DNA of 64,000 nucleotides from SAR202 cluster bacterium (GTDB taxonomy: Bacteria; Chloroflexota; Dehalococcoidia; Lucifugimonadales; UBA3495): contig JABMNL010000035.1 of the NCBI GenBank assembly GCA_013204585.1, positions 10,803-74,802 of the forward strand. Direction: 5' to 3'. The translations under genes and the position numbers were made by a program. Shown here one piece after another: positions 44,650-60,484 of this stretch; position 1 is the first letter of the stretch; each line of letters begins with the position of its first letter. The notes below the pieces were generated by a model. That model made no database searches. It was not told the DNA's origin and saw only the letters and a program-made list of their open reading frames with translations.

Positions 44650-45282
44650 ATGGCCGATGCCCAGTTCACCACCTTTTACGACTTCCGTTGACCCTTCGTC
44701 TATAACGCAGCCGTGTGGCTGTCGAAAGTAGAAGAGTCCACCGGAGAGAAGATTCAAGTCGATTGGCAACCCTTTTCCTTGGCCCAGGTCAACAGCGACA
44801 AAGAGCAAGACATCAAGCTCTGGGACCAACCTGGGGTTAAAGACGGCTCCGACCACACCTTCTTGGCCCATATGTCCGGTTTGGCCGCCAAACGCCAGGG
44901 CGATGAGGCCTTCCGGTCATTCTTCATGACCTTGCTTCGGGCCCGTCACGAAGACAAGAAGGACCTGCTCGACCCGGCTGTCATGGAAGAAGCCGCCGTT
45001 GCCGCTGGTCTGGACATGGCCCGCTTCCGTGAGGACCAAGCAGACCCTGAATTGCTAAAAGATATCGGCGAGTCCCATACCATCGCCGTGGAAGAGCACG
45101 GGGCCTTCGGTGTGCCGACATTTGTTTTTGGCGAGGGCAAAGCCGCCTTCTTGAAAATGTTTATACCCCCAGATGAACAGGCCGCCGAAATTTACGAGAC
45201 GATGACAAAGTCCATGAGCCAGTTCGACCACGTCGGCGAGTTCAAGCGGCCTCAGCCCCCTTGGCCTCATGGGGTTATCTAA
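44650..45282 (+). CDS. DsbA/FrnE-like thioredoxin-fold protein, probable selenoprotein (TGA at 44689-44691)
   Basis: GGGAGG SD, then ATG 44650 reads MADAQFTTFYDFR-U-PFVYNAAVWL in frame with the track ORF 44713. Cis-Pro loop GAFGVPTF is present, with a SECIS-like hairpin at 44707-44722. Confidence 0.82.
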
Positions 45283-55024: not shown

Positions 55025-55118
55025 CCTAGCGGCGGCCAAACTCCCTTTCCATCTAAAACACTCGCATATTACGCGTTCTTCTGGAAACTACCTAGCGGCG
55101 GCCAAACTCCCTTTCCAT
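55025..55118 (-). repeat. Exact 28-bp direct repeat of the mutL 3' end, separated by 38 bp
   Basis: cctagcggcggccaaactccctttccat at 55025-55052 and 55091-55118. Confidence 0.95.
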
Positions 55119-56810
55119 GTGAAATGAACTGAAATGCACCATGGTGGGACGGCCATGGGGGCAAGTGTGGGGATTGGGCGTAGCCTCCAATTGCTCTAGC
55201 AGCGCAACCATCTCCGGTTCAGTCAACGACTTCCCCGCCCGTATCGCTCCGTGACAGGCTATCGATGCCGCCATCACGTCTTCTTTCTGCCGCACCAACC
55301 CCTCAAAGGCCGTCATATCCAGCACGTCCAACAACGCCTTGGCTGGGTCGCCCTCGCCGAATATTGCAGGAACCGCTCGTAGCAGGTAGCTGCCATCTCC
55401 GAAGGGCTCCAATTGAAACCCATAATTCTCCAACGCTTCTAGATTGGTCCTGAGGGTGTCTCCCTGGCCCGGAGTTAGTTCAACGGACACCGGCTCCAAC
55501 AGCGGTTGAGACTGCGGTTCTTGTTCTGAGGTCTTCTGGCAGATGCGGTCGAACAGTACTCGCTCGTGGGCCGCGTGCTGGTCCACGAGGAACATTCCTT
55601 CCGACCCCTCAGCCACGATATAAGTAAGCTTAAGCTGTCCCACCACTTTCAATGGCGGGGCTGGTTGACGAGACACGGCTGCATCCGCCGGTGCGCTTCC
55701 CGAGAAGTCGGACATACCGCCGCCGTGTCGAACGCCGCCAAAGGCGCTACGCGGGAAGAACGACGATGCTGCTGGCTCGGCGTAGTCTGGGGACGGCGAA
55801 GCAAGTGACGGCACCGGAGAATCGGCCACCAATACGGCTCTAACAGCGCGCTGCACCGTGGAGAACACCCGGCTTTCGTCCCTAAACCGCACTTCCCGTT
55901 TTGCCGGGTGGGCGTTAACGTCCACGTCCTCGTAGGGGATGCTAATGTTCAGCGAGGCCAGCGGGTAGCGTCGCACTTGCAGCAGGCCCGTGTAGGCTTC
56001 TTCCACGGCGAAGGAAAGCATTCGACTCTGTACCCACCGGCGGTTTACGAAGAAGGTCATGTAGGTGCGGTTGGCCCGGGTCAGACTGGGTGCACTGGCA
56101 AAGCCGTCCACTTGGTAACCGCTCGCCGAGTCCTCACTGTGGACCTCCAACATGCCAGTGGCCGCCTGGGGCCCGTAGACCGCCAGCAGTGCTTCTCTGG
56201 GGACGCCGTTGCCGGGGCTGGTGAACGATGTGCGACCGTCCACAACCAACTGAAAGCGTATACCAGGAAAGACCAAGGCGTAACGGCTGACCAGTTCTTG
56301 GATGCGGGAGGTTTCTGCCGATGCGGAACGCAGGAACTTACGCCGGGCGGGTAGATTGCCAAAGAGGTCGAAGACCTCAACGGTGGTGCCTGGAGGACTA
56401 CCCTGACTACCCGATGACACCAGTTCACCCCAAAGCAGTTCCATGCGGAACCCACCGGGCTCAAGGGGTTGGCGGGTGGTCAAAACGGTGCGAGAGACGG
56501 CGGCGATGCTGGGCAGGGCCTCGCCCCTGAATCCCATGGTGGCGATGGCGTCCAGCTGCTCTTGGCTGTCTATCTTACTGGTGGCGTGCCGTTGGAAAGC
56601 TACCGCCACTTCTTCGGGAGGGATGCCGTGACCGTCGTCAATAACCTTGAGCAGTTCCACCCCACCGGACTTAATCTCGACGGTAATCTGGCTGGCCCCG
56701 GCATCAATGGAATTCTCGACCAATTCCTTAATCACCGAAGCAGGCCGTTCCACCACTTCGCCAGCGGCAATCTTAGCGGCCAAGTCTGGAGATAAGACTT
56801 TAATTGGCAT
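55092..56810 (-). CDS. mutL: DNA mismatch repair endonuclease MutL
   Basis: AAGEVVERPASVIKELVENSIDAGA, GFRGEAL, DQHAAHER, ACH and CPHGRP. Confidence 0.97.
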   Translation of the reverse strand: MPIKVLSPDLAAKIAAGEVVERPASVIKELVENSIDAGASQITVEIKSGGVELLKVIDDGHGIPPEEVAVAFQRHATSKIDSQEQLDAIATMGFRGEALPSIAAVSRTVLTTRQPLEPGGFRMELLWGELVSSGSQGSPPGTTVEVFDLFGNLPARRKFLRSASAETSRIQELVSRYALVFPGIRFQLVVDGRTSFTSPGNGVPREALLAVYGPQAATGMLEVHSEDSASGYQVDGFASAPSLTRANRTYMTFFVNRRWVQSRMLSFAVEEAYTGLLQVRRYPLASLNISIPYEDVDVNAHPAKREVRFRDESRVFSTVQRAVRAVLVADSPVPSLASPSPDYAEPAASSFFPRSAFGGVRHGGGMSDFSGSAPADAAVSRQPAPPLKVVGQLKLTYIVAEGSEGMFLVDQHAAHERVLFDRICQKTSEQEPQSQPLLEPVSVELTPGQGDTLRTNLEALENYGFQLEPFGDGSYLLRAVPAIFGEGDPAKALLDVLDMTAFEGLVRQKEDVMAASIACHGAIRAGKSLTEPEMVALLEQLEATPNPHTCPHGRPTMVHFSSFHMEREFGRR

Positions 56811-56862: not shown

Positions 56863-57300
56863 TCAGAAGAGGGGAACGACGGTACCCTTCTTGCGGTACT
56901 GTTTGTCTTCGGACGTGCCGGTGGCGGCAAAGTCGCAGACGATGCGGTAAATGCGCTCCATCTCTTTGTCCACAGACCGTTTGAAGAAGTAGGGCGGAAC
57001 CCATACGCCGCCGAAGGCTGCAACAACCTCGGGATAGTCGTCGATGACAAAATCCGGTTCAAAGGGCACGCCCAGCTCTTCCAGTCGTTCGTGGAAGTGG
57101 TGAGTGGGCTTTTCGTAGACACCGCTCACAAAGGGGTTCAATTCGAATTTGTTGACGACTTCCCAACGCTCACCCATTCCGGACCAGATATAAATCTCGT
57201 GCTTTTCGTCCAACAGCGCTTGAAAGGTTTCTTTAGTTTCCGGCCTCAGGCTATTGTCCAAACCGAGGATGGTGTAGTCCACATCGAAGAATATCTTCAT
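56863..57300 (-). CDS. Small HAD-superfamily-like protein
   Basis: FFDVDYTI (DxDxT), IWSG, KP and VIDD motifs in HAD order. Confidence 0.65.
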   Translation of the reverse strand: MKIFFDVDYTILGLDNSLRPETKETFQALLDEKHEIYIWSGMGERWEVVNKFELNPFVSGVYEKPTHHFHERLEELGVPFEPDFVIDDYPEVVAAFGGVWVPPYFFKRSVDKEMERIYRIVCDFAATGTSEDKQYRKKGTVVPLF

Positions 57301-57439: not shown

Positions 57440-57799
57440 CTAACTAGCCTCGGCGATGGCCTCTTCGACTACGGCGTTCCCGGCTCCGACCATCAATTTA
57501 TTCCCTACTTTAATCAGCGGCCGACGCACTAATTTGGGTTCTTCCAGCATCAGCTTGACCATTTCGTCATCCGACAGTGCTTGGTCGGCAAGTCCCATTT
57601 TCTTTAGGCTGGGACTGCGTCGGGCGAAGATATTTTCCGTTCCAACCATGGCCGCCAATTCCCTAACCTCAGCCTCGCTGAAGATTTCTTTGAAGAAATC
57701 CCGGTCAGTGACCTCAAGTCCTTTCTGTAAGAGTAACTCCCTTACTTTGCGGCAGGTCGATCAACGGGGCCACCAGTAAAATTCGACGGTCTGGGCCAA
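57440..57799 (-). CDS. ArsC/Spx-family protein, probable selenoprotein (U-S-T-C; TGA at 57763-57761)
   Basis: AGGAGG SD, then TTG 57799 reads MAQTVEFYWWPR-U-STCRKVRELL, in frame with the track ORF 57440-57658 (RRSPSL, PKLVRRPL). SECIS-like hairpin at 57727-57745. Confidence 0.85.
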
Positions 57800-57889
57800 C
57801 GAGGCCTCCTAGGGTAACTTCCCCAATCGGGATTAAAAATCCCCGGCGTATTCTATACCCAAGGCGAGCCAGAGGAAAGAGGGGCGAGT

Positions 57890-60484
57890 TTAACCACCTT
57901 CCTGGGCTTCTTTTTGCAACTCGTAAAGCTTATTTATCGCCTCGATGGGCGTCAAGTTTGGAACATCCAGGTCTTGAAGCAATTTCTGCAATTTCTGGTC
58001 GCTGCTAAACAATGCCATCTGCTGCGAAGGCTGACCCTTTGTCCGGTTGCTCGGCCTGACGCTGCCAGCGCTTTGGGCCTCCAGTTCGGCCAGCACCTCC
58101 CAGGCCCGGTTGATTACTCCCTGGGGCAGCCCGGCCAATTGGGCCACATGCACGCCGTAGCTCTTGTCCGCGCCGCCGGGAACTATCTTATGCAAGAAGA
58201 CCACGCTATTGCCTTCTTCTGTCACCGCCACGCTTTGGTTCCGCACGCCGGGCAAGCTCGCTGCCAGCCGGGTTAGCTCATGGTAGTGGGTGGCAAAAAG
58301 GGTCTTGCAGCCCAACCTGGGGTCGTTGTGAATGTGTTCAATCACCGAGCGGGCAATGGACAATCCGTCGTAGGTGCTGGTTCCCCGGCCAATTTCGTCC
58401 AAAATCACCAGGGAGCGGGGAGTGGCCTGGTTTAATATGGCCGCCGTCTCCACCATCTCGACCATAAACGTGGACTGGCCAGTAGCCAAGTCGTCCTGCA
58501 AACCGACTCGAGTGAAAATACGGTCAACCAACCCAATCGTAGCCTCTGACGCTGGAACGAAGCTGCCAATCTGGGCCATTAGGGTGATGATGGCTACCTG
58601 CCGGATGTAGGTGGACTTGCCGGCCATGTTGGGCCCAGTCAGCACCACTACTCGGGTTTCGTCGTTGGACAGGTCCACGTCATTGGGGACATATATCCCA
58701 GCGCCCAACACCCGCTCCACCACCGGATGGCGGCCATTAGTAATCTTGATGGCGTTGCCCATATCCAGCACAGGACGGACGTAGCCATTCTCCACAGCGA
58801 CGTCGGCCAGGCCAGAGAAAACGTCAGCCCTGGCAATGGCAGTGGCAACGCGAGTGATTGCACTGGCGGATTCAGCCAGTTGGGCGCAGACCCGGTGGTA
58901 GACGGCCCGCTCTGCCTCTTCAAGACGCTCTCGGGCGTTCAGCACCAGGGACTCGTACTCCTTCAATTCAGGGACGATATACCGCTCGGCATTGGTCAGG
59001 GTCTGGCGGCGTATGTAGTCCTCGGGAACTTGGTCTGAGTAAAGCTTGCTGACCTCGATGTAGTAGCCAAAGACCTGGTTATAGCCAACTTTCAGACCCT
59101 TAATCGACGTGCGCTTCCGTTCCCGTTGCTCCAGTCCGGCAATGAACTGCCGGGCGTTGGACGATGCGCTCTTCAGCTCGTCCATCTCCGGCGCAAACCC
59201 AGGCTTGATTACATTGCCATCACCCACGTTACCCACCGGGTCCGGGGAAATGGACTCTTCGATAAGAGAACAGATGTCGGCCAATGGGGTGAGTTGGGCG
59301 TTAAGCCAGTCCAACTTGGGGCCGTCCAGTAATTCCCGCAGGCCGGGCACAGCAGCCAAGCCGTCCTTCAAGGCAATTAACTCCCTGGGGGCAACTGTTC
59401 CAGAGACGACACGCCCGACGATGCGTTCCAAGTCTGAGACTTTGCCCAGAGCCGAAATGGCAGTTGTGCGCTTGAGGCCGTCCTGATAGAAGTGGTCCAC
59501 CGCGTCGAGCCGCTGCTGTAGCCCAGGCAGGTCAAGCAGCGGTTGGCCCAGCCATTGCCGCAACAACCGACCGCCCATGGGGGTCTTGGTGCGGTCCAGC
59601 GCCGCCAGCAGTGACAGTGCTTTGCTCTCGTTACGCCCGGCAGCAAATAGTTCCAGGTTGCGGCGCGTTTGGGAGTCCAGGGCCATAAAGCTGGCGGTGG
59701 AATAAATGGCCAGGTTGGAAAGCTTAAGTTTGGCAGCCTTCTGGGTTCTGGCCAGGTAATCGACGATGGCCCCAGCGGCCCCAACGGCCAGGTTCATGCC
59801 CTCGCAGCCAAAGGACTCCAAGGTCAAGATACCGAAGTGGGATAGCAACGCCTGTCGGGCTTCGTCTGGATGGAAGGCGCTCGGTTCTACGGTGGTTAGT
59901 TCATAACCCGGCCCAGCCCCGTTAATCGCCCCACCCGCCCACGACAGCGAGTCGTCCGAACGAGCGATTAGCACCTCGGCGGCGGCGATGCGCTCTAGCT
60001 CTAGGAGAAGTTCAACCTGGCCCAGTTCGGTGGCCGAGAACTCGCCAGTGCTAATGTCCACGTAGGCCAAACCCACCCGACCGTCATTGTTGGAACCCTC
60101 GGCTACGGCGGCCAGGTAGTTGTTGGTCTTCTGGTCGAGTATTGAAGATTCGAGCACGGTGCCAGGGGTGATTACTCGGACCACGCCTCGGTCAACCAAC
60201 CCTTTGGAGGCAGCTGGGTCGGTCAACTGCTCGCAGATGGCGACTTTGTGGCCTTTTTTGACCAGCCGGGCCAGATAGTTGTCCAGGGAATGGGCAGGCA
60301 CTCCGGCCAATGGCACTCGCAGGTCTTTGCCCATGCTGCGGGAGGTAAGAGTAATCTCAAGCTCTTTGGCAAAGAGCTTGGCGTCCTCATCGAAGGTCTC
60401 GTAAAAATCGCCCATTCGGAACAGCAAAATAGCGTCCGGATGGGCGTTCTTAATCTTGAGATATTGGCGGCGTATCGGCGTCAC
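57890..60484 (-). CDS. mutS: DNA mismatch repair protein MutS
   Basis: FRMGDFYE, TGPNMAGKST, GQSTFMVEM, DEIGRGTST and SYGVHVA. Confidence 0.98.
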   Translation of the reverse strand: MTPIRRQYLKIKNAHPDAILLFRMGDFYETFDEDAKLFAKELEITLTSRSMGKDLRVPLAGVPAHSLDNYLARLVKKGHKVAICEQLTDPAASKGLVDRGVVRVITPGTVLESSILDQKTNNYLAAVAEGSNNDGRVGLAYVDISTGEFSATELGQVELLLELERIAAAEVLIARSDDSLSWAGGAINGAGPGYELTTVEPSAFHPDEARQALLSHFGILTLESFGCEGMNLAVGAAGAIVDYLARTQKAAKLKLSNLAIYSTASFMALDSQTRRNLELFAAGRNESKALSLLAALDRTKTPMGGRLLRQWLGQPLLDLPGLQQRLDAVDHFYQDGLKRTTAISALGKVSDLERIVGRVVSGTVAPRELIALKDGLAAVPGLRELLDGPKLDWLNAQLTPLADICSLIEESISPDPVGNVGDGNVIKPGFAPEMDELKSASSNARQFIAGLEQRERKRTSIKGLKVGYNQVFGYYIEVSKLYSDQVPEDYIRRQTLTNAERYIVPELKEYESLVLNARERLEEAERAVYHRVCAQLAESASAITRVATAIARADVFSGLADVAVENGYVRPVLDMGNAIKITNGRHPVVERVLGAGIYVPNDVDLSNDETRVVVLTGPNMAGKSTYIRQVAIITLMAQIGSFVPASEATIGLVDRIFTRVGLQDDLATGQSTFMVEMVETAAILNQATPRSLVILDEIGRGTSTYDGLSIARSVIEHIHNDPRLGCKTLFATHYHELTRLAASLPGVRNQSVAVTEEGNSVVFLHKIVPGGADKSYGVHVAQLAGLPQGVINRAWEVLAELEAQSAGSVRPSNRTKGQPSQQMALFSSDQKLQKLLQDLDVPNLTPIEAINKLYELQKEAQEGG

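Follow-up and report, generated by a model that had tools for sequence, protein, structure and literature searches.

An ArsC/Spx-superfamily gene with a predicted selenocysteine codon in SAR202 Chloroflexota and its mutS, HAD-like and mutL neighbors

A stretch of 64,000 nt (the window) from contig JABMNL010000035.1 of the SAR202 cluster bacterium assembly GCA_013204585.1 was analyzed for a predicted selenoprotein gene located between mutS and mutL (hereafter the Sec gene). All gene coordinates refer to the window, and the Sec gene, mutS, a HAD-like gene and mutL all lie on its minus strand. The Sec gene (57440..57799, minus strand) begins with TTG (57799-57797), preceded by a Shine-Dalgarno sequence AGGAGG (57805..57810, minus strand) that was read directly from the DNA and is separated from the start by a 5-nt spacer, CCTCG. 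Its frame reads L/M-AQTVEFYWWPR, TGA, STCRKVRELL and continues to a TAG stop (57442-57440), with a single TGA in the frame (57761..57763, minus strand). When this TGA is translated as selenocysteine (Sec, U), the coding sequence gives 119 residues including Sec13, the first position of a UxxC motif, and TGC at 57752..57754 (minus strand) supplies Cys16, the predicted resolving Cys of that motif. A hairpin of the selenocysteine insertion sequence (SECIS) type follows at 57727..57745 (minus strand). The table-11 open reading frame (ORF) listing shows only the last 72 codons of the gene (57440-57658). The initial annotation of this DNA, made from the letters alone, had described the Shine-Dalgarno sequence, the TTG, the TGA, the STC-RK motif and the extension of a 72-aa fragment to 119 aa in total; every one of these features is present at its position.

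We conclude with high confidence that 57440-57799 is one intact 119-residue gene of the ArsC/Spx superfamily, whose product is predicted to be a cytoplasmic thioredoxin-fold protein with UGA13 decoded as selenocysteine. The coding sequence was supported by its translation with TGA as U, by a Pfam match and by codon usage, which gives this frame a positive score both before and after the TGA and ranks it far above the other five frames. In 15 of 15 close loci the TGA occurs at the same codon, together with GGAGG at equal spacing, a TTG start (ATG in L033) and a near-invariant N-terminal peptide. Variable sites in the upstream codons 2-12 of the related loci number 2, 2 and 7 at codon positions 1, 2 and 3, respectively. 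Because the variation is mostly at the third position, these upstream codons appear to be translated.

The conservation extends well beyond the closest relatives. Among 121 genomes sampled from the order, 79 carry a homologue and 76 of these have the in-frame TGA; among 201 genomes sampled from the class, the corresponding numbers are 57 and 50. Conservation of the TGA across related metagenome-assembled genomes (MAGs), which had been proposed as a check of the prediction, was therefore observed at all three levels. On these counts, Sec is predicted to be the normal state of the protein in the lineage and Cys the exception. An exhaustive profile-free search returned 908 relatives at E ≤ 1e-3, of which the full-length ones carry CxxC, and many homologue clusters below 50 % identity are truncated at the N-terminus. 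For three of the truncated representatives (38-46 % identity) the contigs were located, and each has an upstream in-frame TGA that restores a UxxC motif, in unrelated gene contexts.

Cys occupies the TGA column in P0004/L037 (as TGC), in L043-45, in L049 and in dozens of full-length CxxC representatives. The initial annotation had held that the TGA takes the place of the first Cys of a CxxC-RK motif, and the alignment with the homologues and with Spx bears this out. The Cys-containing orthologue P0004 reads FYWWPRCSSCRK. In L037, found on a Logan contig (bases 365-736), TGC stands at the Sec codon, the complete hairpin is kept and the same 145-aa HAD-like gene follows downstream. L037 would apparently have switched from Sec to Cys very recently, or be a population variant.

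The hairpin consists of a 7-bp stem, GUAAGGG/CUCUUAC, and the loop AGUUA (GTAAGGG at 57745-57739, AGTTA at 57738-57734 and CTCTTAC at 57733-57727 in the DNA), and it was identified from the minimum-energy fold and from comparative pairing. In bacterial SECIS elements the apical loop is expected about 16-37 nt from the UGA, with G in one of the first two loop positions; here the loop starts 23 nt after the UGA and G is at loop position 2, as had been noted from the letters alone. The hairpin is the core of the minimum-energy fold in both the 67-nt and the 151-nt stretches. Across 15 distinct close sequences, all 105 of 105 pair cells are standard pairs and none is broken. One pair of the stem switches between UA and CG (8:7), and three pairs show wobble-compatible changes only. 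When the 3' arm was slid by 1-3 columns, pairing in the same sequences fell to 34-62 %.

Since the single UA to CG switch may be one event, the test was repeated on a larger set, 69 distinct Sec forms from all loci, with a perfect stem of at least 6 bp and G in the first two loop positions as the definition of a hairpin. A hairpin was found in 65 of the 69, compared with 13 % of codon-shuffled controls, with a loop start at +22 or +23 for 57 of the 65. More than 40 different stem sequences occur among the Sec forms, e.g. GUAAGGG/CUCUUAC, GCGAAAGC/GCUUUCGC and GCGCGGGA/UCUCGCGC, and the loops are mostly GUU, GUC, GUG or AGUU(A/G), with G-U predominating. The four Sec forms lacking a perfect stem have bulged versions of the same stem. 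None of the four long-standing Cys forms (L043-45 and L049) has the hairpin. The compensatory changes in relatives thus agree with the hairpin as first described, and the pattern is as expected of a bacterial SECIS, for which this hairpin is a strong candidate.

The host genome is a 3.1-Mb MAG in 76 contigs of SAR202-type Dehalococcoidia, with relatives labelled SAR202 or Dehalococcoidia. Absence of the sel genes had been named beforehand as a ground for giving up the prediction; selA (571 bits), selB (262 bits), selD (371 bits) and selC were all found above curated cut-offs. The tRNA-Sec (66 bits) has a TCA anticodon and was confirmed by ARAGORN, and selD has its own single in-frame TGA. The selB match (contig C12:26921-28615) covers model positions 55-580 only, with the N-terminal GTPase part outside the reported frame, perhaps owing to a start-site or frame issue. 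TGA is still used as a stop in this genome and ends 219 of 1467 ORFs of at least 300 codons (15 %); it is also the stop codon of the Sec-gene orthologues L020 and L023 themselves. The remaining long ORFs end in TAA (658) or TAG (590), and TGA is the rarest stop despite a G+C content of 56 %. The genome, which uses Sec, may avoid TGA stops, or the rarity may be a simple codon bias.

Several observations weigh against the selenoprotein prediction or against a closer definition of the product. The fold energy of the hairpin region is no better than that of shuffles (z = 0.31 and -0.09), and Rfam gave no SECIS or other meaningful match at either gathering or permissive thresholds. Because of these two results, the support for the hairpin is comparative and not thermodynamic. 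The hairpin is also short, with several A-U and G-U pairs, and the one compensatory pair seen in the 15 closest relatives may go back to a single event. The sequencing runs that match the stretch are DNA runs only; no RNA run was found. With regard to the protein, the score stays below the cut-off of every specific NCBIfam model, and Foldseek supports the fold while its scores do not tell the Spx, YffB and ArsC types, and hence regulator and reductase, apart.

These points have to be set against what other readings of the TGA would entail. If the TGA were a genuine stop, the real gene would be a shorter ORF with an internal TTG, GTG or ATG as its start, 72 aa long in this genome and 96-101 aa long in databases. 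Most public entries are indeed fragments of 96-101 aa that start with MLLQKG or MRELLLQKG, and TGA does work as a stop in this genome. However, the product would lose strand 1 and the whole U/CxxC center with its two invariant columns, the 12 upstream codons, the Shine-Dalgarno sequence and the start are conserved with synonymous-type variation, full-length Cys homologues exist, and the hairpin tracks the TGA state; we consider this reading very unlikely. It is even harder to credit that the gene is a pseudogene or that an error in sequencing or assembly turned a TGC or TGT Cys codon into the TGA, an explanation to which we give almost no weight. One base does separate the two states, as L037/P0004 with its TGC and retained hairpin illustrates, but the TGA was recovered independently in 15 close MAGs, 76 genomes of the order and unrelated metagenome contigs, and no other frame disruption was seen. 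It is likewise highly improbable that the UGA is read as a residue other than Sec, either Trp or Gly by reassignment, or Cys by near-cognate or thiophosphate-derived insertion. A few public entries are 124-aa forms with W at the Sec site (P0002, P0003 and P0005), apparently from table-4 calling. Reassignment is nevertheless at odds with the 15 % of long ORFs that end in TGA, the aligned residue of the homologues is Cys and never Trp or Gly, the genome contains the complete Sec machinery, and the SelB-type hairpin lies at the canonical distance.

The product matches the Pfam family ArsC (PF03960) with 66.8 bits (E = 2.2e-18), above the gathering threshold of 24, and its model shows the thioredoxin-like fold and, inserted into it, the helical domain expected of the family. 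Together with the Spx alignment and the Cys-bearing homologues, this upholds the view of the initial annotation that an ArsC/Spx-family UxxC protein had been concealed by the ORF caller. Bacillus subtilis Spx is the closest PDB match by sequence (E = 3e-11); in the alignment, Spx Cys10 and Cys13 stand opposite U13 and C16, and both proteins have the RRP motif. An AlphaFold2 model, built from a 25-sequence family alignment, has a mean predicted local distance difference test (pLDDT) score of 86.8 and places a helix at residues 14-25. Foldseek comparison of this model gave template modeling (TM) scores of 0.78-0.85 to Spx, YffB and ArsC-like structures (0.83 for Spx). The invariant columns of the family alignment are U/C13, C16, R33, E44 and the R-P of the RRP motif.

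Among the NCBIfam models, TIGR01617 (Spx/MgsR) scored best at 67.3 bits, below its cut-off of 75.05, which was passed by three of eight relatives scanned (82.9, 92.4 and 76.4 bits). Membership of NF041106, 'ArsC family (seleno)protein', was rejected, as the protein scored 37 bits against a cut-off of 85 and the eight Dehalococcoidia relatives scored at most 37 bits or were unmatched. Glutaredoxin-dependent arsenate reductases are recognized by the TIGR00014 (ArsC) cut-off, an Arg60/Arg94/Arg107 triad and an ars operon. The TIGR00014 score here is 52.3 bits against a cut-off of 106.05, no Arg is found at the position of E. coli ArsC Arg107 (MVGAGN in this protein, QVGYNE in Spx), and no ars genes were found near the Sec gene, whose neighbors are mutS, the HAD-like gene and mutL. 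Because of the missing Arg and the lack of ars context, a true arsenate reductase is judged unlikely from the sequence.

By analogy with the established SelB pathway, SelB·GTP·Sec-tRNA(Sec) would bind the mRNA hairpin in codons 19-25, with the conserved G-U in the hairpin loop, and Sec would be delivered to the UGA, which precedes the loop by 23 nt. In the predicted structure, the U13-S-T-C16 center would lie at the N-terminus of helix 1, the place of the Cys10-x-x-Cys13 redox switch in Spx. Homology to Spx and to thioredoxin-fold CxxC proteins suggests that U13 and C16 would cycle between the selenol/thiol and selenenylsulfide states. Such reversible selenenylsulfide chemistry would most likely make the protein a fast thiol/selenol oxidoreductase or a redox sensor.

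The upstream neighbor of the Sec gene, across a gap of 90 nt, is mutS (57890..60484, minus strand; NCBIfam MutS 1038 bits, five MutS Pfam domains). Downstream, across a gap of 139 nt, lies a 145-aa gene (56863..57300, minus strand) for a cap-less HAD-superfamily phosphatase-like protein with a DxDxT motif, followed after a 52-nt gap by mutL (55092..56810, minus strand; NCBIfam TIGR00585 513 bits, MutL_C and DNA_mis_repair domains). The order FNR-like gene, mutS, Sec gene, 145-aa HAD-like gene, mutL was found in 14 of 14 close loci with enough flank. At the level of the order, mutS-Sec gene-HAD-mutL occurs in 12 of 29 loci from five families, in which the Sec protein shows 44-60 % and MutS 59-73 % identity, and in two genomes of another family the Sec gene is directly upstream of mutL. 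The Sec gene lacks a mutS or mutL neighbor in 16 of the 29 loci of the order, and it does so throughout the other orders of the class. Twelve of those order genomes have the HAD-like gene directly upstream of mutL with the Sec gene elsewhere, five of them as mutS-HAD-mutL. Because HAD-mutL persists without the Sec gene, the HAD-like gene is the stable partner of mutS and mutL, and the Sec gene seems to occupy the mutS-HAD spacer as a lineage-specific guest. Clustering of the neighbors around the class- and order-level homologues revealed no recurrent partner gene besides antisense shadow ORFs.

Whether the four genes form an operon was addressed by a promoter and terminator scan of 54.9-60.7 kb, in which site counts were at shuffle expectation, so that an operon is neither supported nor excluded. 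This consensus scan found no terminator-like site in the 139-nt gap and two weak ones, at the junctions of mutS with the Sec gene and of the HAD-like gene with mutL. With gaps of 90 and 139 nt to its neighbors and a strong Shine-Dalgarno sequence, the Sec gene could be expressed independently.

The HAD-like protein matches Pfam Hydrolase_3 only weakly and over residues 3-41, and no Pfam family scored above threshold. Its AlphaFold2 model (pLDDT 81) resembles MDP-1, KDN-9-P phosphatase and the T4 Pnkp 3'-phosphatase domain in Foldseek (TM about 0.5). Identity among close relatives is 91-95 %, above the conservation of MutS or MutL, and the gene adjoins mutL upstream in every order-level genome checked (including L100-L111), often as mutS-HAD-mutL. 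The protein may be an uncharacterized mismatch-repair accessory in SAR202. A sequence hit to the Vsr mismatch endonuclease (E = 0.39) was rejected as a chance match, since both the motifs and the predicted fold are of the HAD type.

Two more specific functions for the Sec protein were weighed. As an Spx-type regulator, it would be a selenium-based redox switch that binds the C-terminal domain of the RNA polymerase alpha subunit (alpha-CTD). Among solved structures Spx is the nearest by sequence and its redox pair is aligned, TIGR01617 is the best model of the Sec protein and is passed by some relatives, and equivalents of Spx Gly52 and Arg60 are present. However, the protein itself stays below the TIGR01617 cut-off, the C-terminal tail is absent (119 versus 131 aa), the Gly52 equivalent occurs in this protein and its close relatives but is not conserved in the family alignment, and YffB and ArsC-like reductase folds score equally high in Foldseek. 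To our knowledge, Spx function is documented only in Firmicutes. We regard such a regulator as unlikely. A role in mismatch repair through a mutS-X-HAD-mutL operon, for example by reducing cysteines of MutL or MutS or by sensing oxidative stress, is also improbable. The initial annotation had raised a possible redox link to mismatch repair, which is weakly supported: the four genes lie on the same strand with no terminator-like site in the 139-nt gap, their order is kept in all close loci and in five families, and the two genomes with the Sec gene next to mutL belong to yet another. Against the functional link speak the loci without a mutS or mutL neighbor within the order and elsewhere in the class, the persistence of HAD-mutL alone, the lack of a recurrent neighbor elsewhere and gaps that permit independent expression. 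The position of the Sec gene is a lineage-specific gene-order feature and not evidence for a mismatch-repair role. It is slightly more doubtful still that the Spx-like Sec protein of SAR202, as a selenium-based redox sensor or reductase, is functionally tied to mutS-HAD-mutL and protects the metal-binding cysteines of the MutL endonuclease or tunes repair under oxidative stress. If true, no selenoprotein would have been linked to DNA repair before it, or no Spx-type switch would have been Sec-dependent before it.

Other candidate selenoprotein genes were searched for in the genome with a six-frame census, which required a positive coding score on both sides of the stop, a hairpin at the distance of a SECIS and a Cys no more than three residues away. 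The census is crude, and its coding-score threshold was lowered as stricter settings missed the Sec gene itself. It returned 14 TGA sites compared with 0 TAG and 2 TAA sites, and the list includes the Sec gene, SelD, three to four UGSC-type genes, DsbA-like and Trx-like UxxC genes and two CxxU genes. The suggestion of a Sec-rich genome therefore holds in outline, with about 14 candidates, although the number is approximate. The UGSC-type sites are three to four paralogues with the motif G-[IL]-[GA]-D-U-G-S-C-[TS] on contigs C11, C20 and C24 (just past the end of the window, near window coordinate 67123), with an in-frame TGA and hairpins of 7-9 bp; they look like the 'UGSC-containing' selenoproteins of marine metagenomes. 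A second UGA with a SECIS-type hairpin had been claimed for the window, and it was located in a DsbA-like gene at 44650-45282 (plus strand). This gene reads FYDFR-U-PFVY (MADAQFTTFYDFR-U-PFVY) and encodes 210 residues with Sec at position 14. Its hairpin lies at SECIS distance, but the gene falls outside the 14 sites because it has no Cys within three residues.

The practical meaning of the Sec gene lies in annotation. NCBI records of the clade read 'hypothetical' or truncated ArsC/Spx/MgsR protein because the clade falls outside NF041106, the model of the NCBI Prokaryotic Genome Annotation Pipeline (PGAP) for such genes. This amounts to a systematic annotation error across the SAR202 order and Dehalococcoidia, with fragments that lack the active site or table-4 translations with 'W'. 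As long as NF041106 misses the clade, pipelines will keep missing these genes; a new model, or a broader version of this one, would put hundreds of records right. The approximately 14 candidate selenoprotein genes in a 3.1-Mb genome also add to the view of the abundant deep-ocean Chloroflexota as selenium-dependent.

Proteins of this kind have been reported before. In the Global Ocean Sampling (GOS) data, 'Arsenate reductase 2' (cd03032 ArsC_Spx, UxxC) comprised 42 selenoproteins and 238 Cys homologues and was listed separately from the UxxS 'Arsenate reductase (ArsC) 1' (Zhang & Gladyshev 2008; PMC2398784), and the 'arsenate reductase' selenoproteins of the 2005 Sargasso Sea study are of the UxxS form (PMC1088965). 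ArsC-like selenoproteins have also been noted in Deltaproteobacteria, and reviews of 2022 and 2026 list an 'Arsenate reductase-like protein' (COG1393 / NF041106) with UxxC (PMC9312934, PMC13188914). The papers on this UxxC family name neither Chloroflexota nor SAR202. In the literature searched, no mention was found of the dominance of the Sec form in SAR202 or Dehalococcoidia, of a clade scoring below NF041106 or of the mutS/HAD/mutL neighborhood.

The Sec protein resembles GOS 'Arsenate reductase 2' in its ArsC/Spx-type domain, its UxxC with Sec first, its marine relatives and its many Cys homologues, and these descriptors suggest that the two clades are the same. With NF041106 it shares the description of an ArsC-fold UxxC selenoprotein. 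It is like TIGR00014 and E. coli R773 ArsC in Pfam family, fold and the N-terminal position of the nucleophile; unlike ArsC and the UxxS selenoproteins, it has UxxC-RK instead of C/UxxS, no Arg107 equivalent and no ars genes nearby. To Spx/MgsR it is linked by the alignment of CxxC with UxxC followed by RK, the RRP motif and the TM score of 0.83, and it differs from them in Sec for Cys10, the absent tail, the sub-cut-off score, an alpha-CTD-contact Gly that is not family-wide, and the phylum. The kind of selenoprotein has thus been known since 2008, and what the present gene offers is an annotation fix and not a new mechanism.

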